A stretch of 63,996 bases of DNA, the filler included, from Fonticula-like sp. SCN 57-25 (Eukaryota): assembly GCA_001724245.1 (NCBI GenBank). It is 3 parts of 3 records of this genome, joined end to end, with 100 filler letters (N's around TTAATTAATTAA, not from the genome) between each part and the next. Parts side by side here need not be neighbours in the genome. Positions count along the whole stretch, not along the records: positions 17,974 to 49,488 come from MEDX01000118.1; 2 more parts are not named here. One strand, 5' to 3'. The first letter of the stretch is position 1. Every line of letters starts with the position of its first letter. Below are positions 17,874 through 49,588 of the stretch, in pieces. The notes below the pieces were generated by a model. It saw only the letters and a list, made by a program, of their open reading frames with translations. It was not told the DNA's origin and ran no database searches. The translations under genes and the position numbers were made by a program.

Positions 17874-17973
17874 NNNNNNNNNNNNNNNNNNNNNNNNNNN
17901 NNNNNNNNNNNNNNNNNTTAATTAATTAANNNNNNNNNNNNNNNNNNNNNNNNNNNNNNNNNNNNNNNNNNNN
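17874..17973. other. Artificial contig-joining spacer
   Basis: N44-TTAATTAATTAA-N44 (stops in all six frames); identical structure at 49489-49588. Confidence 0.97.
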
Positions 17974-27009: not shown

Positions 27010-30000
27010 ATGGGCCAGACGTTAAGCACGAGTGATCTTGTGGAGCATGTGAGAACAGATCTCGGACTAGAGTCGTCATGCGAAGTGTTTCCGTTGTTTT
27101 CGTCGTCGTCTGACGGAGGCACTTTTGCGGCCGTGGAGGTTTTTGCCCGTGATATTTCGAGTCCCGTGCTGCGCGCGGCCTTGCAACGCGTGGCCGCGCT
27201 CTCCGCAAACGGGTCGCCATCGTCAGCTTCAACGGCTCCCCAGCCTGATTCGCAGGTTCTCCGGTTCTCTGTGCAGGTCCTCTCTCGCTCCGGCCATGCA
27301 TTCGAATCGAGCGCCGCGTACGAGAGCGTGAGCGAACAGATGGTGCAGAGTGCGGACGGTGATGCCGGCAGCTCCCAGCTTGATGCCTATGTTGATGAGC
27401 TGCGCGAAATGTACGGTGGGTGGCACGCGAGGCAGCTCAACTTGCTTCCCTCGCGCGCACCCTCTCAGAACCGCACCTGGATCAGGAAGCAGCTGGCCAG
27501 CAAGCAAGACGTTGTCGCCACATGTGTAACCGCATTGTTTCCAAATGTGAAGCGCCTAAAAAGCACGCCTCGCGACAAAATGCTTCCGCTTATTGCGGAG
27601 CTGCCGTCTCGGGTGTCCCCGCTAAGCGGAGGACAGCACGCAGCATCGTTGCTCTCGGTGGACATCCTGCTCGAGTCGCCAAGAGCATTTTTCCTTATTT
27701 CGCCCTACTTTCCGCTGTCCGTCGACGACTTGATCACGTACAACTTGGGAGGCTTAAATACGTCGTCGACGTATAAACTCTTTTTGCTTTACCAGGCTCT
27801 GAAGGGCCTGGAGGCTGCCCACCGCAATGGCGTGACGCACGGGAGAATCACCGCTCAGCACCTGTTGGTGGACGATAGATTGTGGGTTAGGTTATGCGGT
27901 CTGCGGTCTATTGCGCCTGGCGACCGGCATGTTGGTACGCCTTGGCCCCTCTGAATTCGCTTCCTTATGCTTTGACCCAGCCACACGGCGCGCCCCTCTC
28001 CTGCTGTACCGCGAGCCGCGCGTTTCGCTCACTGAACTGTGGATCAACGGTGACGTTTCCAATTTTCATTATTTAATGGCAATCAACCGTGCAGCCGGGC
28101 GACGCGAGGGCGATTCAAACTTTCACCCTGCACTGCCGTGGGTGATTGATTTCGCTGCCTCTGCCTCTGCATCAGGTGCAGACGGCGGGGAAATCATATT
28201 CCGCGATCTTTCAAAGTCAAAGTTCCGCTTGAACAAAGGTATGAAGCGCAGCGTTTTTGCGAGTTTTTCTGACCCGACCTTTTTATTTGCCAGGCGACGA
28301 GCAGCTTGATATTACCTACTCCACTGGCCCTCATCCGCATCACATCATTGACATTTTGACCGACATTACGTATTACGTATACATGGCACGGCGGACGCCG
28401 GTGGCCGTATTGACGCGCCATGTCCGGGCAAAGTACGAGCCGCACGAGTACCCCTCCTCAATCGCGCGAATGTATCAGTGGTCGCCGGACGAATGCATTC
28501 CGGCCTTTTTCACCGACCCGACGGTGTTTTGCTCCATTCACAGTGACATGCCTGATCTTCAGCTTCCGCGCTGGGCATCCTCGCCGCAGGACTTTGTGCA
28601 GAAGCATATGGAGGCCCTGGAGAGCGACGTTGTTTCGCACCGCTTGCACCACTGGATTGACCTAACCTTTGGCTGCAAACTGACGGGTCGCGCGGCAGTG
28701 GACGCAAAGAACGTGCCGCTCTCGCCTGCACAGACGGGTCGAGTTGGCGAGCCGCTTCGTCGCGGGCTGGTCCAGCTCTTTCGCTCTCCTCACCCATCTC
28801 GCTCGGCATATTCCCACGGCAACGTGAGGAGCGGGAGCATTTCTATGGGGTTGCCACGCGGCAAGCCCGCACCTGAAGAGGATGAGGTGAAGAGCGCTGG
28901 GCCTGCCGCCGTGTCGTCGTCCTCTGGTGCTCTGTTCGTTGACAAAATGACAAATCTCTTGCTTTTGCCGCTCCCTGACGAGATGCGCCGTGTGCTCTCT
29001 GATCAGCGTGGTTCACCGCCGCCTGCTGGTGGCGCTGCTGCTGGAGGGCTGGTTCGCCGCACCACCAACCCGTCTCCCTCCGCCTCGCCTTCCTCCTCTT
29101 CCCTGGCGTCAGCCAGCGCGCAGCGCAAGTTTAGCGGAGACCCTCGCGTTAATTTGCGTTTGCCGTCCGCGTCCCTGTCTCCGATGCGGCAGGTGACGAG
29201 CAGCATCAATGACGATGATGAGGGTCTCCCAACCCCCGTCTCGTCCGTTGAATCTGCAAACGTCCCGGCCGAATCGTTTGCGCCGAATCAAGGGGACAGT
29301 TTGGCCGACTCGCTGACGACGGCCTTTGCCCATGTGTCCATGCCGCCTGCTGATGTGTCCCAGACGGTAACGCTGCCGCTTTCAGTCACACCCGAGAGTC
29401 TCATTTGCAAGGTGGAGCACTTTGAAGAGACGGCTGCCTTTTCCCGGGCTTTTTCTGTGCTTGACGCTCGGGCCACAACAGGGACTGCCCCATCGCTTCC
29501 ATCTCTCCGCGCTTTCATGTCGAAGCGGCAAGCAGTGGCGTCGCTTTCTGCGGCCAAGGCATCGTCCAACCAGGCGGCATCGGCGCTTTTGGACGAGGCG
29601 TTGCAGCGAACGAATGAACGGCGCAATGAATGGTCGTTTGAGGAGCGCGTTGCGAGTGACGTACGAGATGTCCTAAGCATTGCGCTGCGCCTTTTCCAGC
29701 GGGACGCGACCACCGGCTCTCCCACTTCTATGGCCGACGTACCATCTCGCTTGGCAGCCACGTGCTTACGAGCGTCGCTTCCTAAAGAGAATCTAGCCCA
29801 CTGGACTGCTACTGCCATGTTGGCGCCCGAGGCGGGCCTCGGATTCCCTTCACATTTCGGTTGGATGTACGAGTTCCTGGCCAAGTTTCAGATGAGCGAC
29901 TGGAAGGAGAGGCTCGCCTTTGCCGACACGTACATTACCGAAATCTGCGAGCTTCCAGATCCTAGCTTCCACTTGATGCTCGCCCACCTCGCGCAGCTCT

Positions 30001-32771
30001 TTCACGAGCCGAGTATTCGCTGCCAGTCTCTTGTGCTTTTTGACAGGCTGTGCAGTCGTCTGGGTGTGGTGCGTTCTCAGGAGCTGTTCAAGAAGCCAGT
30101 CCAGGCAATGTTTGAGACATATGACGCCGACACTTATGCGCACCTGCTGCGTCCGCAAATCCTGGACAGCTTCCTGCTGCGCTTTGGCGTTCGTTTTGGC
30201 CTCAAGCAGCTGCTCCCCTTTATTTTGGACTGTCTTACCATGAAGGAGCCCCCGACTACAACGGCGCCCGTCAACGTCGCGTCCTTTGCGGCAACCGGAT
30301 CGTCGCCATTTGCCATGTTTGGCAACATTTGGCGCGAGTCGGAGACAACCGATTATGACGCGGCTAGCGACGTCGAGGCGACGAGCATTTCGCACTTATG
30401 CTCCATGGCGCTCACCTCGATTGCGACGCTCATTGGCCCCGTCCTGTGCGTGCGATACATTACGCCTGCGCTGCTGCGCAAGCAGATTGGCGAGAATGCA
30501 TCGTCTCAACAATTGCATCACACGCTTGTTGCTATCGGGGGTCTCTTTGGGGACGTCTTTATCACGTCGCACATCATGCCCTTCCTTATCAACGCAGTCG
30601 AGGGCCACGTGAAAAAGCCGACCGGGCGCACGCCTCTCATTGTCGCCACCATCCTTTCTGTTCTTCAGCGCTTTGCAGTGCAGCTGCCGGCCGAAGCTGT
30701 TATTGGGCTGCTCGCTGGTCAGCTGGGAGAGGTGCTTCACACGCTCATGCAGACTCTGCCGCTTTCAGACAAGTTGAGTGTGGAGGAACGGCGCGGCATT
30801 TTGAAGAATACGCTTTCTCTTCTCGTTTACATCTCTCATGCAATCCCGCGGGCGGACTGGGAGGCCCACATTTTGCCCATGCTACAGTCGTACTTTGCGA
30901 GCTACGACCACATCCATGCGGCGGCCGTCGGCGCCAAGCAGCCGCTAACCGTGTTTACCGGCACGCCGGCCAGGGTACGCGACGATGATGCCCGCGTTCC
31001 AATTATTAACTATTGCCGCGTAGGCTATTTATTCGCCGGTGCTGGCGTCTTACGCATACTCGCAGTTTTGCCTTTTGATTGGACAGGAGAGCATGCGTCG
31101 CTACGTCCCCAACAAGTGCGTTTTTCTTTTATATTTGTTCCTTGCTCACGCGCATGATTCCCAGCGAGCTCATTGAAAAGATTATGTATGACCACATTGA
31201 TGGGGAAGCAAATGCGGCGGCGGCGACGGGTGCGCCCGAGTTGGACCAAGAGGTGCCGGAGGAGGTTGATTGGTCAGTCCCGCCGGATGCTTCCGTGCTT
31301 GCATTGCATGATGAGGTTATTCCGGTCGCCGAGCCTGCGATGCTTCCGTCGGCGCTCTCTATTGCGCCGTCAGCCGTGGACTCTCTGGAGACCGGAGAAA
31401 CCGTGTTCATGCAATCGTGGTTTGTATCGCCGGACGAGCAGCTTGACGACGCCGCGCGTGCTCGCAGCAGCAGTGCCAAGGGCTCCCCGGCGCGTACTTC
31501 GATGTCGTCTGGATCCTCATCGACTGCTACGCCGGCGTCTTCCGCGTCGTCGACGTCCTTTTGGCGGTCCAAGAGCGCCGCTGTTGCCGCCGCTGCCGCT
31601 ACTGCAGCGATGGCAGAGCATCGAAACTGGCGCGAATATTTTCAGATGCAGTTGCGTCACAAGCAAAAGACGTCGCACTACTCTTTCAACGAGCATCGTA
31701 TCCACTCGTACCACGGGCACACGGGGGGCGTCCGGCAGCTGGACGCGGCATTGTGCGAGCGTGTGGGATTGAGCGGCGGGCGCGACCGCACCATAAAGAT
31801 CTGGAGCTTGGACGCGCATGGGCACGGCCTTCATCCGCAGCAGCTGCAGCAGACGCAGGTCCTTCAAGCGCAGTATCGCATGCAGGGCGGCGGTTGCCTG
31901 CGCACGTACAATGGTCACCGCAAGAACATTACGGACGCCTTTTTCTTTGCCGATGCGACGCAAGTCGTCTCCAGCGATGGTAATATCCATTATTGGGAAA
32001 CGGAGAGCGGTCACGTGTTACAGCAGTTTGAAGCCCCGAAAGGGTTCACGTACTCGAGCGTGGTCGCGGCCGAGCACTCCAAGACTCTTGTGGCTGCCTC
32101 GCAGCAGCTTTACGTGCAGTACGCCAGATTCGATACAAAATTTGAATGATCGACTAATGTTGTGCTTCTCTAGGCTCTTTGACTTGCGCCAGCGCAGCTT
32201 GCGTCACACGCTTCGCACATCTGTCGGGATCCCCAACGGGGCGATCCGCTCCCTCGCGCTGCCGCCGCCGTCGTCATCGTCTGCTAGCTCTCCCTCGGGC
32301 GCGGGTCAGAACCAGCACCAGCTTGCCGTCGGCCTATCGGCGGGCCACCTATCCACCATCGACCTCCGCACTGGCGCTGTGCTAGGGCAGTGGCGCGTGC
32401 CCCAGACCACCGCCGACGTATCGCATCTGAGCTACCTGCCCGACGGGCGCCTGCTCGCCATTGCGGGTGACACGCTGAGCGTGGCTGATCCTAAGCGCCA
32501 CAGCGCGGAATCGCTGCTCAAGGCCGGCGGCGAAATCGTTGCCTTTTGTACATACAAGAGCATGGTTATCGCCGTGGATGCGAGCAATGCGCTGCACATC
32601 ACGACCGTGCCTTCGGCGGCCAACCAGCCTGAAAAGGCGAAGGTAACGACCGTCAAGCTCAAGAGCACCGCCGCCGGGATCAAGAGTAACGTTACCGCCC
32701 TTCAGTTCCTCCCTCTGAACCGCCTTGTTTGGTTTGGCTGCGACGACGGCCAGGTCCTTTTGTATCATTAA
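27010..32771 (+). CDS. WDR81: WDR81-like protein (kinase-like, BEACH and WD40 domains; 5 introns)
   Basis: MGQTLS myristoylation-type start; [67 protein letters not shown]-terminal WD40. Confidence 0.9.
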
Positions 32772-37109: not shown

Positions 37110-38989
37110 ATGGCGGCCCTGTCAGCTTTCAGAGCTGCGGTGTCGCGTGTAGTATGCCGCGCGGCAGGCCTCCCCGAGCGCGCGCTTATTCATTGGGTGG
37201 AGCGCCCTCGTGTTGCCTCTCATGGTGACTTTGCTGTCCCTTTTGCGCGCATTCTCGAGGCAGCCAAGGAAGCTGGCGCCCCTCGTCCGCCGCCTCCTTC
37301 GGCCATCGCCAAGGGTGTTGTTCCGGACGACTACATTGCGCGCGCAGAGGATGGCGGCGGCTTTGTCAACCTGCATGTGGACCGCGGCCGCTTTATCCAA
37401 GACGTTCTAAAGGACGCGCTCTCGCGCCAGGAGCTTTTCGGCCATGTCGATGATGGTGCGCTAGCCCACGTGGCCTATGCCCTCGCTGATCGCCGTGGTT
37501 CTGCCGTGTAGTGAAGGATGATCTTGTCATTGTGGAGTTTAGCTCGCCGAATATGGCCAAGCCGTTTCACGCGGGTCATTTGCGGTCGACGATCTTGGGC
37601 AACATTTTGAGTAATCTGTTCAAGGCGCGCGGTCATCAGGTGCTAAATGTCAACTATCTCGGCGACTGGGGCACGCAATACGGGCTGTTGTCGCTCGGCT
37701 TTCAAAAGTATGGCGACGAAGCTCTTTTTGAAAAGGATCCGATTCGCCACTTGTATGATGTGTACGTGCGCATCAACGCGGACGCGTCGCAGGATGACGC
37801 ACTCCGTACCGAGGCCCGCGCCGCATTTGCGCGCCTCGAGCAAGGGGAGCAGGTTGAAACGGCCCTGTGGCAGCGCTTTCGCGATCTCAGCCTCCGCGAG
37901 TACGACCGGCTTTACTCGATGCTGGGCGTCTCTTTTGACGTTCACGACGGCGAGTCATTCGCGCGAAAGACGGCCCCCAAGGTGGTGAAGGACCTCCTTG
38001 ACAGCGGCATTGCTAGCGAGCAAAACGGTGCCGTCATCGCCGACCTTTCAGATAAAAAGCTGGGCGTTGTTGTTTTGGAGAAGAAGGATGGCGCGTCCAT
38101 CTACTCGTCGCGGGATCTTGGTACGGCGCCATCAAGTGATTGGCCTTTGCTAACAGCTCGCGACAGCGGCGGCAACCTCTCGGATGGAAAAGTACAAGTT
38201 TAATCGGATGGTGTACGTGGCAGGGGCAGAGCAGCAGCTCCACTTTCAGCAGGTGTTTGAGCTGCTGCGCCGCATGGGGCACTCATGGGCGGACACTTGC
38301 TCACACGTGTCATTTGGCCTTGTTCGAGGCATGTCGTCGCGTGACGGTGCGCACTTTGCCACGACCAAGTCTTTATGCTGACATTGCTTGGCACAGGCAC
38401 GGCTGTTTTCCTTGAGAATATTTTGGATCGCGCGGCTGCGAGCATGCGCTCTGTGATTGACGAGAACCCGGACAAGTACGAGGACGTCTCTGACGAGGAG
38501 CGCGACCACATGGCGCGCCAGCTCGGCCTCGCGGCGGTCGTCGTGCAGGACCTTTCTGCGCGCCGGATCAAGGACTATACCTTTGACTGGGCGCGAATGA
38601 CGGACGCGCGGGGCGACACGGGCGTCTACCTGCAGTACGCCCACGCGCGGTTGATGGGTATCCAGCGCTCGTTTGGCCGCCCGCTGCCGCATGTCGATTC
38701 CGTGGACCTCTCCTCGCTGGCGCGGAGCGAGGACGCGTTCCGCCTGGCGGTGCAGGTGTCACTGTTCCCAGAGGTCGTCGAGACTGCCCTGGAGAGGACC
38801 GAGCCGTCCATGCTCGTGCACTATTTGTTTGACCTCGGCCACGCCATGTCGTCGGCAAACGCGGTGCTCAGAGTAAAGGACCAGGCACCCGCTGTGGCCG
38901 AGCCGCGTATGATGCTCTTTGCGGCCGCAAGGATAGCGCTCGCGAACGGCCTAAAGTTGCTTGGCCTCGTGCCTCTCGACCGCGTGTAA
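37110..38989 (+). CDS. RARS2: Arginyl-tRNA synthetase, probably mitochondrial (3 introns)
   Basis: VEFSSPNMAKPFHAGHLRSTILG, NYLGDWGTQYG, GMSSRDG, GDTGVYLQYAHARL; presequence-like N-terminus. Confidence 0.9.
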
Positions 38990-39075: not shown

Positions 39076-40032
39076 TTACATTTCCGAAATATTCGGTTCG
39101 GTTCTCTTTTGCTTCTTGTCTTTGGCCGCGATGAACGGAGCGTGGAGTGCGTCATGCAGACGCTTGGCCTTTTGCTCACCTACGCCAGGGCACATGTGCA
39201 TCTGTAGGGTGGTAGCCTCGCAAAGCCGCTTAAACGACTATGCAATCACACGGTAAGTATCTCACTTTTCAAGCAGCATTCTTCGTACGCCAAATGTGGA
39301 AGAAAGAGTGACGACGTCGGTCTTGTTGACGGACCTGACGGACGTCAGTGCGTCGGACAGTTGCGACATGTAGTCAGTGCTTACTCGACCCTTGAGCGCG
39401 TCTGGCGGCTTCTTTTCGTACGCCTTGAAAGTTTCGAGGTACCTTCCTGCCTCCTCCACGCTCCACGCGAGCACGATGGTGAACGAGTTGACGAGCGACA
39501 GCTTGGAGAGCTCGGTCAGCGAAACGACGTGGTCCTCAACGTCGACTTGCACGAGCAGCACACGCAGCGAATACTCGCGCCGAAGGGACTTTAGACGGTT
39601 GTAGATGTACTCGGGATGAAGGCGGTGGTAGCGCAGGCTGAGGAAGAGGACGCACGCAGTACGCCCCACAATATAGTCCGGGACGATTTCGCCAAACTCC
39701 CACGCGACGGTGCGAATGTGCTGAAGAACAGGATTGTTGCGCTGGTTAGGGTGAACCGTGATCGCGTTGGACGAGTAGACGCTAAACGGACTGGGCAGCG
39801 CCCGCGGAGGCTCCGAGGGGGGTCGCACGGCCACAGCAGTCGGCGGAGGCGGAGGCGGAGGCGCAGCGTTGGGATCGACGGCGACCCATGTCGAAGACGG
39901 CGAATCCGCCGCGGCATCTCTCTGAATCTCATCCTGGCGCTGAGCTTCACTTATTTGAGCAGAACGCGCGCGGAAGAAGGGAACGCGCGGAGCGGCTGGC
40001 GCCTCCGCGAGATCCGGTGGCGCGTCGCCCAT
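39076..40032 (-). CDS. ERCC1: ERCC1/Rad10 excision repair protein (1 intron)
   Basis: QRNNPVL, LFLSLRYHRLHPEYI, LAWSVEEAGRYLETFK, HhH motifs VRSVNKTD and CPGVGEQKAKRL. Confidence 0.96.
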
Positions 40033-40331
40033 TCCAGATGGCGGGAAACGTGTCGGTTTCGGTCGGTTAGCGGTTGGTTATAAATATATGCAGGGGTAAG
40101 GTGTCAGTAAGGTAGTATAGTGGCTCGACAGATATCGGGGTGCCGAATGAATATGGCAAGGTATACGCATCATCAACATGTTTAGCGCCCATTTATCGTT
40201 TAGCATTCGTTCGGGCGCAAGTGTGGCTTGCATCATTTGCCAGCACACTTCCGATGTGCAAAGTGATATTCATTGATTGTTCACTTGGTGCCGATCATTC
40301 GCTTTACGTCATACACAGGTACCTTCCGTTG

Positions 40332-41210
40332 ATGTCGCTTGCAGGAAAGGTGGCCCTGGTGGTGGGCGGCACGAGTGGAATCGGCCGCGGCTTCGCGGAA
40401 TGGCTTGCTCAAAATGGTGCGTCCGTTTGCATCAGCGGTCGCAATCGTGAGCGCGGCGACGAGGTGGTGGCCTCCATGAAGAGTCGGTGCCCCTCGGACG
40501 CCGCGGACGCTCAGTTCGCCTTCCTTCCGGTCGACGCCATGCTTATCAAGGACACGAACCGTTTCTGCGAAGAGTACATGTTCTCTCACTCTCGTCTTGA
40601 CTACCTTGTCCTTACGCCGGGTATTGCGTACTTTGGTGCCCGCCTCGAAACGAGCGAGGGTCTTGAGCAGAAGATGGCGATCCACTACTACGGCCGCGTG
40701 TCCATTATCCTTGGCCTGATGCCGCTTCTTGAGCGCACTGCCGCTGATGACGCGGCTGACGTTCGTGTCCTCTCTGTGCTGTCAGCCGGCATGCATGGGC
40801 CGTACTCGCACTACCGCGAGGATCCCGAGCTCGTCAACAACTTCTCGCTCGCCAACTGCGCCAACGCCACTAGTCTCTACAATGACGTGGCTGTTACCAG
40901 CCTCGCCGAGGAGCACCCTCGTATCACTTTTTGTCACGCGAACCCGGGAATGGTCAACACCAACTGGGGATCGGACTTTAACCCGTTGCTTAAAGGACTC
41001 GTGCGAATTGGCCAGCTCTTTGCCAAGTCACCCATCACTTGCGCGACGCAGCTGTCGCCGGTTCTTGTGAGCCCCGAGTTTAAGGGCGGCGCTGTGTTTT
41101 CGTCGCAAACCGCTCAAAGGGTCAGCCCCAATACTGCGGCTCAGCCGGGCAAGGAATTTATCTGGAAGCACACGCTTGACGTCATCAAGCGGCTCGGTGG
41201 CAAGGAGTAA
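40332..41210 (+). CDS. Short-chain dehydrogenase/reductase, atypical and intronless
   Basis: VALVVGGTSGIGRG Rossmann motif, YYGR, HANPGMVNT; no canonical YxxxK. Confidence 0.88.
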   Translation: MSLAGKVALVVGGTSGIGRGFAEWLAQNGASVCISGRNRERGDEVVASMKSRCPSDAADAQFAFLPVDAMLIKDTNRFCEEYMFSHSRLDYLVLTPGIAYFGARLETSEGLEQKMAIHYYGRVSIILGLMPLLERTAADDAADVRVLSVLSAGMHGPYSHYREDPELVNNFSLANCANATSLYNDVAVTSLAEEHPRITFCHANPGMVNTNWGSDFNPLLKGLVRIGQLFAKSPITCATQLSPVLVSPEFKGGAVFSSQTAQRVSPNTAAQPGKEFIWKHTLDVIKRLGGKE

Positions 41211-42056: not shown

Positions 42057-42791
42057 GGAAGACAAACACTTGGTTTCTTTGGTTTTAGTTTTTCAGCGAT
42101 GCATGATTCGCGAGTGAAGGTGGGTGCTTAAGGTGATGAAGGAGAGGAGTGGTGATGGACGAGGAGAGTTTGAATGGAGGAGAAGGCGTTGTTTGTGGTT
42201 TTCTATGGGTTCGGGGGTATTTGGGTGTGACACGTGGCGCTATCAGGCATCTGATGTTGCGTCGCGTGGCTTGTCCAATCGCCTTTTCCTTGTCTGTGGA
42301 GTAACTTGAAGCATGTCTACTGTTCCTTAAATCTTTCTTTGGCTTGTTTCCCTTTTTTCTGGAGTTTTAGGCGACCATCGTTGCTTTCGTCTTGTGTGCT
42401 GTTGTTAATGCTTTTTCATATGGTGTTTTCTTTTTCTCTGTCACGCGGTGCGTTTCCTGCGTTGACTAGTATAGCGCGCTGCTGTAGCGAACTGTTGCTG
42501 AGCTGTTTTACGTGAACTGCTTGGCTGCACACTCGCCGACTCCAGTTGTGGTTAGTTTTATTCTCTAGTTCGTTTGTTAGTCTGACCGGCCGCGGTTGTC
42601 ATCCTGCGTATGCTTTTGTTGATCTAGATAAATACATACATTGGGCCGTTTAATTTCAGACCATTACCGCATTGCACAGTGTACACATTGCACTATAGGT
42701 ATTATAACAAAAGCACATATCCCAGTGCGTCCACTTGCTTGGGTTGCGTGGTGCAACCCATCGTGTGTCACCGTTTTGCCCGTGTGGCACG

Positions 42792-43812
42792 ATGCTGGCG
42801 CGGCGGCAGGCAGATCTGCTGATAAAGTGCCACAGTAGACTATGGGGAAGGGCTTTTTCGCGTCCCTTGCCTGCAGCAGCAGGTGACAAACAGATCGCAC
42901 GGCGTGGGCAGGACGGGCGTGGTGCGCGTGGTGGACATCGACCTGCGCCTGGGGTGGGATCATCGTCAGCGACCATGCCGGCGGCCTCTCCTTCTAGTTC
43001 TGGCCCCTCGAGTGCCCCCACCACCGTAACCTCCACTATTAGTACTGTGAGTGGAGGCCGCCGTGTTATGACGTATGCGACACACGCAGATCTGCTGCGC
43101 CGCTTTCCCTGGTTGGCGCGGCTGCCTCCCCCGAATGCGGCGAGAGTCAAGAAGCGGCAGCAGAGATCGCTGACCTCGGTGAAGAATACGGCGGCGACAT
43201 TTATGGCAAAGGGAGCGTTCAGGTGGAACTGCGACTGTTTTCAGCTGAGGACAAGGAGATGGGACAATAGGGAATGGAAGCAGCCAGGTACGGCATTCAT
43301 TGTGGAAAGGCTATGCTGCGATGTAAAGATCGGTGCTCGCGGGTTTAATTTGTTGCGCAATTGGCGCGTGGTCCTGAGCCAACATCTTTTTACATTGAAT
43401 ACTTTATCATTTGTTTGGGTTCGCATTTGGTTAGGCGCCGATGTCGGTCCTCTTTGTTTGCCTTCCCACTTCAATCCTCTGCTGCCAACTGTCTTCTAAC
43501 TTTATTCTCAGCACTAAAGTGGCGTGTGAGCGTCCTCGTAACCAAGCGTGTCATTCGCAACGCTGTCGAGCGCAATGCTGTCCGCCGCAAACTAAAGTCT
43601 ATTATTCGTCGCGCCATATCCGAGGCCCCAACAGGTACGCACGCTTTGTCCCTTTTTCCTGCGCCATTCTGCTCACGCAACGGGGCGGTCGTTCAATAGG
43701 ATACGACTATACATTTGTGCCAAACAATGCCATTGCGGACGCCGATAACAGAAGGCTTGCCGAACGCGTGTCAATGGCGTTCTCGCGCGTGCCGCGCCAC
43801 GGCAAGCGGTAG
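42792..43812 (+). CDS. rnpA: Bacterial-type ribonuclease P protein (RnpA/C5) with N-terminal mitochondrial-presequence-like extension; 243 aa
   Basis: Exons 42792-43287, 43512-43634 and 43700-43812 give ...WRVSVLVTKRVIRNAVERNAVRRKLKSIIR...GYDYTFV..., i.e. the RNR motif and G.D.V strand of RnpA. Confidence 0.82.
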
Positions 43813-44045
43813 CAAAGTACCAAATTGAACTGTATCATTACTGTACAATATCGAGTGGTGAAGTGTACCACTTGAACAAATATATGTTTACGCGAGGGCA
43901 AAGTGCATTTGCAAGCGCGTACTCTTTATTTTTACCGTGTCTTTTGTATATTTGCATTGGAATTGGTCCAAGGCTGCGGTGACGAATCAAATCCACGTGG
44001 CCAGATTCGTTTGCTGTTCTGCGCGTCAACAGGCCCCGGGATCGA

Positions 44046-46184
44046 ATGTCGGTTCCTGTGTCGCGCCGATTCGGCGTTGGCGGCGGGTCGCGTACCGCCA
44101 CGCCTTCTTTTTTGAGGCTATCTTTGAGCGCGTTATTTGTTTGCTTGTGCTTTTTGTCTGTTTCTGCGGCGTCGGTGCCAAAGGTGGCCGTTCGCCTTGC
44201 GGATCCCAGTTTGCCGAGCGTGCTGTCCTTTGCCGAGCGCCACGGCCTCGCCCTTCGCCACTATGTGACGGAGGACATTGTTCTGTTCGAGTCAGTTAAT
44301 TCGGACACGATATCCTTCCAGCGGAATCTGACGCGTGTTGCGCGCTCGTCCGAGGCGCTCTGGAGTGCCGAGCAGCATCCTCTCCTGCGTGCCAAGCGGA
44401 CGTTTGACGATCCGCTGTTCCCGCTGCAGTGGCATCTGGAGGCGGACTCTGCGTCGAGCATCAACGCGCAACCTGTGTGGGATAGCGGCAACCACGGCAG
44501 TGGCGTCGTTGTTGCTGTCGTGGATGACGGCCTCGACCACTCGCACCCCGACTTTGCCTCCACGTACAGCGCCGAGTGCAGCTACGACTTTAACTTTCTC
44601 GACGACGATCCGATGCCGACGCTCAAGGACGATGTGCACGGGACGCGCTGTGCTGGAGAAGTAGCCGCTGGCGCAAACGACGGGACGTGCGGCGTTGGCG
44701 TTGCGTACGAGGCCAAGGTGGCTGGTCTGCGCATCCTCTCTGGCGAGGTGAATGACGCGACGGAGGCGAGCGCGCTGTCGTACAAGTTGGACAAGGTGAG
44801 CATTTACAGCAGCTCATGGGGCCCGTATGATGACGGCAAGACGGTGGAGGCGCCCGGCCCGCTGACATCGAGCGTGCTTGCCAACGGTGTGCAGACCGGC
44901 CGCGGTGGCCGCGGGTCAATCTTTGTGTTCGCCAGCGGCAATGGTGGCTCCAACGACGACTGCAACTATGACGGGTACTCCAATTCGATCTACACGATTG
45001 CGATCGGCGCGGTGGACCGCAACCGCAAGACGCCGACGTACCAGGAAAACTGCGCAGCACAGCTGGCGGTGACGTTTAGCAGCAACGCGAATGACTATAT
45101 CACGACAACCGACGTCAATGGCCAGTGCACGAAGCGCATGGGCGGCACGTCGGCCGCCGCGCCGCTTGCCGCCGGTATTTTTGCGCTTGTCCTTTCGGCG
45201 CGTCCGGACCTCACCTGGCGCGACCTGCAGTGGCTCGTCGCGACCACCGCGGTTCCCATCGACGACGGCGGCGAGCTCGTCGATAACGCCGCCGGCCTGC
45301 GCTTCAGCCAGACGCGCGGGTTTGGCCTGCTTGACGCCGAGCGGCTCGTGCGCGCCGCCGAAACGTGGACGCTCGTTGGCGCCCACATCCGCGCACAGTT
45401 TCCCGCGGACGACGTCGGCAGCGACATCCCACAACAGGAAGCGGGCGGCGACGGTCTGCTCGTCACAAAGACCGTCGTCGCGCCCAAGCGCATGGCGCGC
45501 CTCGAGCACGTCCAGGTGTCTGTGACGGTCGAACACAAGTCGCGCGGTGATCTGTCGTATGAGTTGACGTGCCCGTCGGGGACGCGCAGCCTGCTCGCGA
45601 GGGCGCGCCGTCGTGACACGAGCCTCCACGGGCTCTCGTCATGGACGTTCATGACCGTCGCTTGTTGGGGAGAGGACCCCAATGGGACGTACGAGCTGCG
45701 CGTGCGCGACACTATCAACGCAGGCAGCACCGGAAAGCTCGTTCAGTGGGCGCTCAAGCTCAATGGCGAGCGGCAGGAGACGGACGAGCAGGACCCTACC
45801 GACGCGCCGACGGCCGCGCCATCCGACGAGCCAACCGGTGCACCGACTGAAGCGCCGACTGCCGGACCTACTGACGCGCCGACTACCGCGCCGACGTCCA
45901 CCACACCAACTGATTCGCCAGCAACGCCTGTACCGAGCGAAATTGACACGCTGCCGACGGACGCGCCGGTCGAAGGTGAAGAGGACGAGATGATGGTGTC
46001 GATCAGGACGATTGGCGTCGCGCTCGCTAGTATCGTGGTCGCCCTCTTGGCCTTTGTCGTGTACAAGGCGGTGGCCAAGAGGAGGGAGCAGGCGAAGCTG
46101 CAGCGCAGCCTCCGCGTGCGCCTCGACGGCGACGAGGAGCCAATCCTGTTCACGCTCGACACTGACGAGAACGACCTTTTGTGA
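44046..46184 (+). CDS. KEX2: Kexin/furin-like proprotein convertase (intronless)
   Basis: Signal peptide, RAKR prodomain site, VVDDGLD, HGTRCAGE, GTSAAAP, P-domain, PT-rich stalk, TM and acidic tail. Confidence 0.95.
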   Translation: MSVPVSRRFGVGGGSRTATPSFLRLSLSALFVCLCFLSVSAASVPKVAVRLADPSLPSVLSFAERHGLALRHYVTEDIVLFESVNSDTISFQRNLTRVARSSEALWSAEQHPLLRAKRTFDDPLFPLQWHLEADSASSINAQPVWDSGNHGSGVVVAVVDDGLDHSHPDFASTYSAECSYDFNFLDDDPMPTLKDDVHGTRCAGEVAAGANDGTCGVGVAYEAKVAGLRILSGEVNDATEASALSYKLDKVSIYSSSWGPYDDGKTVEAPGPLTSSVLANGVQTGRGGRGSIFVFASGNGGSNDDCNYDGYSNSIYTIAIGAVDRNRKTPTYQENCAAQLAVTFSSNANDYITTTDVNGQCTKRMGGTSAAAPLAAGIFALVLSARPDLTWRDLQWLVATTAVPIDDGGELVDNAAGLRFSQTRGFGLLDAERLVRAAETWTLVGAHIRAQFPADDVGSDIPQQEAGGDGLLVTKTVVAPKRMARLEHVQVSVTVEHKSRGDLSYELTCPSGTRSLLARARRRDTSLHGLSSWTFMTVACWGEDPNGTYELRVRDTINAGSTGKLVQWALKLNGERQETDEQDPTDAPTAAPSDEPTGAPTEAPTAGPTDAPTTAPTSTTPTDSPATPVPSEIDTLPTDAPVEGEEDEMMVSIRTIGVALASIVVALLAFVVYKAVAKRREQAKLQRSLRVRLDGDEEPILFTLDTDENDLL

Positions 46185-49488: not shown

Positions 49489-49588
49489 NNNNNNNNNNNN
49501 NNNNNNNNNNNNNNNNNNNNNNNNNNNNNNNNTTAATTAATTAANNNNNNNNNNNNNNNNNNNNNNNNNNNNNNNNNNNNNNNNNNNN
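49489..49588. other. Artificial contig-joining spacer
   Basis: N44-TTAATTAATTAA-N44. Confidence 0.97.

Follow-up and report, generated by a model that had tools for sequence, protein, structure and literature searches.

The locus at 42792-43812 of the window (the whole stretch of 63,996 nucleotides that was analyzed) raises the question of whether a fungus-related protist carries a nuclear gene for RnpA (also known as C5), the small protein that works with a catalytic RNA in bacterial RNase P to trim tRNAs, and whether its mitochondria may have retained the enzyme in its bacterial form. A sequence-only reading had proposed three exons that splice through two GT-AG introns into a 243-aa open reading frame. 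Joining these exons reproduced the coordinates and the junctions given in Table 1: the coding sequence has 732 nt, its three exons are in phase, and it is free of frameshifts. The exons are spread over three separate stop-to-stop frames. Exon 1 belongs to an open frame of 263 codons (42708-43499), which holds no in-frame ATG 5' of position 42792, and the frame of exon 2 (43349-43699) contains no Met at all, so that an upstream exon and splicing are needed to supply a start. Both introns carry a CTNAC motif 12-24 nt upstream of the acceptor.

Table 1. Features of the rnpA-like gene and of the genes around it (positions in the window)
Feature	Position	Strand	Details
First in-frame ATG (candidate start)	42792	+	opens the frame running to the GT at 43288
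Exon 1	42792..43287	+	165 codons plus 1 base; residues 1-165
Presequence-like N-terminus, residues 1-24	42792..42863	+	5 Arg, 1 Lys, 1 Asp; R-x-F-S at residues 20-23
Intron 1	43288..43511	+	224 nt, GTACG...AG; AG at 43510-43511
CTAAC, branch-point-like motif of intron 1	43496-43500	+	
Exon 2	43512..43634	+	123 nt; residues 166-207; RnpA domain core
RNR-type RNA-binding motif, residues 177-198	43544..43609	+	hmmalign against 72 bacterial RnpA sequences
Intron 2	43635..43699	+	65 nt, GTACG...AG
CTCAC, branch-point-like motif of intron 2	43672-43676	+	
Exon 3	43700..43812	+	residues 208-243 and stop; last strand and C-terminal helix of RnpA
Stop codon	43810-43812	+	
Kexin-like S8 protease with P domain	43983-46184	+	
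Short-chain dehydrogenase (SDR)	40116-41210	+	
ERCC1	39262-40077	-	
Arginyl-tRNA synthetase (ArgRS) exons	37490-38989	+	
BEACH-domain protein	28245-31157	+	

The splice model was compared with competing two-intron GT-AG models of the region near its junctions; of 1402 models built, 1375 gave scores on a profile of 72 bacterial RnpA sequences (see below). The proposed splicing ranked first among these 1375 models, with 47.7 bits. For intron 2 the choice is firm: models with any other intron 2 reach at most 30.5 bits, which leaves a margin of 17 bits. Intron 1 is favored by only 1.2 bits over the next donor/acceptor pair, which scored 46.5 bits. The start codon is uncertain, M1 and M93 being the candidates; in-frame Met residues occur at positions 62 and 93 in addition to Met1, and a start at Met93 would yield a protein of 151 residues whose N-terminus is equally basic. 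Codon usage gives weak support to exon 1 and does not discriminate within it. Another observation was that a 12-nt string occurs in exactly two copies in the window, at 42810-42821 and 43086-43097, each copy beginning 18 nt after an in-frame ATG (those of Met1 and Met93) and encoding the same four residues. The repeat may be the trace of a small duplication of an N-terminal segment or, alternatively, the mark of two alternative starts; a MAFFT alignment of both ATG regions showed no extended duplication beyond the 12 nt.

Does the spliced product belong to the RnpA family? Exon 2 alone (40 aa) matched the Pfam family PF00825 (Ribonuclease_P) with 27.0 bits (E value of 5e-6, profile positions 41-75 of 109), which passes the curated cut-off of 22.3 bits. 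The 116-aa unspliced frame that contains exon 2 reached 31.2 bits on the same profile. From NCBIfam, TIGR00188 (rnpA) was the top match of exon 2 alone, with 28.8 bits, a score that stands beside an equivalog cut-off of 38.35 bits set for the whole protein. Exons 1 and 3, translated and searched singly, had no match in Pfam or NCBIfam. The clusters nearest to exon 2 in the Protein Atlas were those of bacterial Ribonuclease_P at 0.89, which is under the 0.9 bar and hence a lead only.

For a closer comparison we assembled the E. coli rnpA gene from its annotated record, the PF00825 matches in its phylum (a search that found a match in 120 of 121 genomes), 40 further stretches, and one metagenome RnpA. 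Our own profile represents 72 bacterial RnpA sequences and has 107 positions. Beyond the score of the full spliced protein given above, it assigned 50.3 bits to the C-terminal 125 residues, 46.4 bits to exons 2 and 3 joined, and 28.8 bits to exons 1 and 2 joined; singly, exon 2 scored 28.0 bits, exon 3 8.6 bits, and exon 1 -1.1 bits. Adding exon 3 thus raised the score of exon 2 by 18.4 bits, and shuffling the C-terminal 125 residues 1000 times gave at most 10.6 bits. The profile alignment places residues 138-236 of the protein on profile positions 16-106 of 107, with the end of exon 1 contributing just 1.3 to 3.9 bits to the score. Profile-profile comparisons by hhalign, for which an alignment of 42 RnpA sequences was used, placed the exons as follows: exon 2 fell on columns 47-81 with a probability of 96.2% (E value of 2.2e-9), and exon 3 on columns 85-116, directly after those of exon 2, with 78.3% (E value of 1.8e-5). 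The end of exon 1 fell on columns 22-38 with a probability of 1.2% and without significance. No better N-terminal RnpA segment is encoded in the forward frames of 42300-43560.

The sequence-only reading had assigned the RnpA layout to the last ~115 aa as a whole. This layout stands for exons 2 and 3, whose likeness to RnpA over residues of about 166-236 is, by profile scores, well beyond chance, but not for the stretch read as “QRSL...F.AKG, FQL” at the end of exon 1. By the same comparisons, residues of about 121-165, a poorly conserved part that should correspond to the first third of the fold, are not recognizable as RnpA. The predicted product of the three-exon gene is accordingly described as a divergent member of the RnpA family, an assignment that holds for the C-terminal two thirds of the domain.

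To obtain an overview of the residues that are kept, we numbered the aligned positions after E. coli RnpA within the hmmalign alignment. Within the RNR-type motif, whose presence had been claimed before, the E. coli residues K53, K54, A59, R62, N63, K66, R67, R70, and R74 have as counterparts K177, R178, A183, R186, N187, R190, R191, K194, and R198; seven of these positions (A183, R186, N187, R190, R191, K194, and R198) bear out the earlier claim. At the position of E. coli R64 the protein has A188. Outside the motif, R46 (R170), D84 (D209, the conserved Asp, encoded in exon 3), and L101 (L226) are kept, the nearly invariant G48 is replaced by Ser, E71 and V86 are lost or unaligned, and R11, L12, and F18—the conserved N-terminal Arg-Leu and Phe—have no aligned counterpart. 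Among the 28 profile columns with at least 60% conservation, 11 are identical in the protein and 16 are identical or similar, the columns kept including R170, A183, R186, N187, R191, R198, and D209. Identity to individual bacterial RnpAs ranges from 15.6% to 32.6% in the sample of 72. As judged from this alignment, most RNA-binding residues are retained and the RNR motif is largely kept. Since residues of the RNR motif are kept while the N-terminal ones are lost or unaligned, the predicted protein appears to have retained its RNA-binding helix, with an N-terminal third that has strongly diverged.

Next, we asked where the gene resides. The genes around it (Table 1) are ordinary eukaryotic ones, which places it on a eukaryotic chromosome and rules out bacterial contamination as its source. 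Together with the profile matches, these neighbors agree with the earlier description of a nuclear, intron-containing gene of the bacterial RnpA family. The kexin-like proprotein convertase begins about 230 nt 3' of the RnpA stop, and its features include a repeat rich in Pro and Thr and a hydrophobic segment at the C-terminus; a copy of it is on record (669 aa, 100% identical). Its top non-self match is a protein of the nucleariid Lithocolla globosa (47% identity, 513 bits), and the next matches come from early-diverging and other fungi, with 40-52% identity. On the basis of this one gene, the matches suggest that the window belongs loosely to the fungal side of the opisthokonts and that no close relative has been sequenced. 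The label “fungus-related protist” of the sequence-only reading agrees with these matches, although a single gene is no proof of it. As to the window itself, it holds four 44-base runs of N (17874-17917, 17930-17973, 49489-49532, and 49545-49588), arranged in two pairs with 12 bases between the members, which may represent gaps in the assembly or masked sequence.

Searches for relatives of the protein came back blank within their respective scopes. The exon 1 frame had no match among 2301 candidates from a set of 5.8 billion proteins, and the exon 2 region had no word-sharing candidate among proteins of 63-203 aa. Likewise, the 42-aa exon 2 gave no phmmer match at an E value of at most 0.001 among 1.84 billion representatives and no match among PDB sequences. 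Since a query of 42 aa is blind to distant relatives, these results do not make the gene unique. The neighbors kexin and ERCC1 are on record, so that the RnpA protein seems to be absent from public sets that do include those neighbors. A metagenome scan yielded one confirmed locus from 585 pattern matches, namely, L153 (2857-5166). It lies on an A+T-rich bacterial contig with the gene order rnpA-yidD-yidC, and we rejected it as a eukaryotic relative on these grounds. Its RnpA shares eight consecutive residues of the RNR helix with the protein studied here and, with 30% identity over 90 aligned columns, is the second closest among the 72 compared.

The absence of a eukaryotic relative from these searches (exon 1 frame, exon 2 region, and 42-aa exon 2) bears on the origin of the gene rather than on its function. 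It would fit a gene acquired later from a bacterium by horizontal transfer, with introns gained since, and so would the patchy distribution of RnpA in eukaryotes, which comprises prasinophytes and Andalucia in the cited portions of the literature (PMC7050145, PMC4919922). However, identity to the sampled bacterial RnpAs is low, as given above, and the gene has two spliceosomal introns and a long N-terminal extension of eukaryotic type. Because of these introns and this extension, any such transfer would have to be old, and we consider a bacterial donor of this kind quite unlikely. Descent from the mitochondrial endosymbiont, the origin that we prefer, would be the alternative.

Turning to expression, two RNA runs, both soil metatranscriptomes of one study, share words with 42500-44000. 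Contigs of both runs match 42500-42646 at full identity and end at 42641-42646, upstream of the gene. These ends could mark the end of a neighboring transcript, and the matches suggest that this organism, or a near-identical one, lives in soil. One might take the gene for an unexpressed or decaying remnant, or suspect that the model of exon 1 is wrong in its start codon or in the donor of intron 1. Such a view could draw on contigs that stop at 42646, short of the gene (a fact that says nothing on expression), on a protein that was not found in the public sets searched while kexin and ERCC1 are on record there, and on the weak codon usage of exon 1 together with the marginal preference for intron 1. 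Yet all three exons are open, in phase, and bounded by canonical splice sites without a frameshift, conserved functional residues are kept, and no forward frame of 42300-43560 offers a better N-terminal RnpA segment. A remnant or a misplaced exon 1 therefore seems distinctly unlikely to us, and we proceed with an intact gene that is presumably expressed.

If the gene is intact, where might its product act? The N-terminus had been described as Arg-rich and nearly acid-free and as followed by a long low-complexity linker, and residue counts found both features. Residues 1-30 have a net charge of +5, with five Arg, one Lys, and a single acidic residue (Asp), and their best 18-residue hydrophobic moment is 0.60. 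The R-x-F-S at residues 20-23 is of a motif type that we take to be cut by the mitochondrial processing peptidase. The linker covers about residues 25-120 and is rich in Ala, Pro, Ser, Gly, and Arg; in all, the extension ahead of the RnpA domain comprises about 120-137 residues. These features are suggestive of a mitochondrial presequence. The argument is weakened, however, because 149 of 733 ATG-started open stretches of 40 codons, taken from both strands of the whole window (G+C content of 55.6%), are equally basic and acid-poor, with 19 of the 733 also carrying a motif of the R-x-F-S type. Mitochondrial import is nevertheless a reasonable expectation by analogy, mainly because of the role of RnpA and the eukaryotic precedents.

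Taken together, our preferred explanation is a three-exon nuclear RnpA gene whose protein serves a mitochondrial RNase P of the RnpA-rnpB type, which we hold to be somewhat probable. In this mechanism, the N-terminal extension would carry a mitochondrial presequence, and the protein would be imported into mitochondria to partner a bacterial-type P RNA (rnpB). By analogy with the described eukaryotic systems, this mitochondrial reading of the gene is plausible.

As to the partner RNA, Rfam gave no match at gathering score over the whole length of the window. In the part of the literature cited here, rnpB is present in all zygomycete mtDNAs, and the mtDNAs of chytrids and basidiomycetes are without it (PMC3790967). 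For the mitogenome of Nuclearia simplex, the summary in a review names no rnpB (PMC7194472), and the original publication, with its gene map in a supplement, does not mention rnpB in the main text (PMC2789072). In the cited papers on RNA-based RNase P of mitochondria, its protein partners count as largely unknown outside budding yeast, and no in vitro activity has been obtained with mitochondrial P RNAs and their known proteins (PMC9181182).

It is conceivable that the gene is a genuine member of the RnpA family but does not serve a mitochondrion-encoded rnpB, its product being either a relic in another RNA-binding role or the partner of an RNA that is encoded elsewhere. The silence of the Nuclearia texts and the lack of rnpB in chytrid and basidiomycete mtDNAs would fit this alternative, as would the protein itself: the N-terminal third, a part of bacterial RnpA that helps to form the leader-binding cleft, has diverged beyond recognition, and G48 and R64 are replaced. 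On the other hand, the RNR motif, the element that binds P RNA, is the best-kept part of the protein, and in the cited parts of the reports the described eukaryotic RnpAs all co-occur with organellar P RNAs (PMC7050145, PMC4919922). Moreover, the evidence from Nuclearia comes from a review and a main text, and the window organism is itself placed with uncertainty. We judge a family member that does not serve a mitochondrial rnpB to be unlikely, though less so than the alternatives weighed above, and retain the mitochondrial RnpA-rnpB enzyme as the preferred reading.

What would follow from this preferred reading? It is tempting to speculate that a fungus-related protist still runs the two-part RNase P of the endosymbiont in its mitochondria, with an imported RnpA and a bacterial-type P RNA, a claim that we advance tentatively and to which we give a little less than even credence. 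If it is true, the enzyme form made of RnpA and P RNA would be assigned to the ancestor that fungi share with animals, and an RnpA gene in a lineage beside the fungi would widen the range of the retained bacterial holoenzyme to include opisthokonts. For the bacteria-like mitochondrial P RNAs of zygomycetes, whose protein partner is still missing, the protein would then supply a first concrete candidate, and its sequence could serve as a query for this partner in early-diverging fungi. A bolder variant would be that RnpA persists without an rnpB in the mtDNA and has taken on a new RNA partner or a new role.

Compared with bacterial RnpA/C5 (PF00825, TIGR00188), the protein has the same family signature, and its central strand and RNR helix, followed by the C-terminal strand and helix, match the profile colinearly. 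Both also have in common the conserved Asp and the key basic residues of the RNR motif. In contrast to the bacterial genes, this one is nuclear, is interrupted by two spliceosomal introns, and encodes the long N-terminal extension; the protein differs further in its low identity to the bacterial sequences, in its unrecognizable N-terminal third, and in the replacements of G48 by Ser and of R64 by Ala. It also lies outside the gene order rpmH-rnpA-yidD-yidC of E. coli and of metagenome locus L153. Solved structures of RnpA include 2LJP and 7UO0, which we take to be from E. coli, as well as 1A6F and 1NZ0/3Q1Q, presumably from B. subtilis and T. maritima, respectively.

Among eukaryotes, the closest parallels by description are found in prasinophyte algae and in a jakobid. 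The sequence-only reading had called eukaryotic RnpA sporadic and named prasinophytes as its example; this example is sound, but the account was incomplete, as the jakobid Andalucia godoyi, in the cited part of the report on it, has RnpA as well (PMC7050145). Within the portions of these papers cited, eukaryotic RnpA is described for prasinophytes and Andalucia only (PMC7050145, PMC4919922, PMC12699882), and our search of the literature, as distinct from family databases, came upon no account of an RnpA from fungi or from protists related to them. A nuclear gene for a bacterial-type P protein is likewise present in Ostreococcus tauri and other prasinophytes, according to the sections cited (Lai et al. 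2011, as described in PMC4919922 and PMC7050145). The nuclear RnpA of Ostreococcus works with an organellar P RNA, and the same source records that it is active in vitro and complements an E. coli mutant (PMC4919922). The prasinophyte system, as these passages present it, is thus characterized by its organellar P RNAs, its activity, and complementation, whereas the RnpA of the window is known from its gene sequence. The lineages differ as well, prasinophytes being green algae and the window organism probably belonging to the fungal side of the opisthokonts, and the two systems are likened here by description and not by sequence.

The RnpA of Andalucia is depicted, in the cited part of the report, as highly diverged with most functional residues kept and with predicted mitochondrial targeting (PMC7050145), a description that the protein of the window matches in its divergence and kept residues and would match in its putative targeting. 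The same passages place this mitochondrion-targeted RnpA beside a bacterial-type rnpB encoded in the mtDNA, whereas the window organism is known here from its nuclear gene (PMC7050145). A 2025 paper still counts RnpA among the special bacterial features of Andalucia (PMC12699882). The presumed task, 5' maturation of mitochondrial pre-tRNAs, is shared with yeast Rpm2, which acts with the RPM1 RNA, and with the protein-only PRORP/MRPP3, which are, as far as the cited portions go, proteins unrelated to the RnpA of the window (PMC3790967, PMC10941002). Given that RnpA has already been described in eukaryotes, the gene reported here would represent a new lineage with a known system and not a new kind of system.
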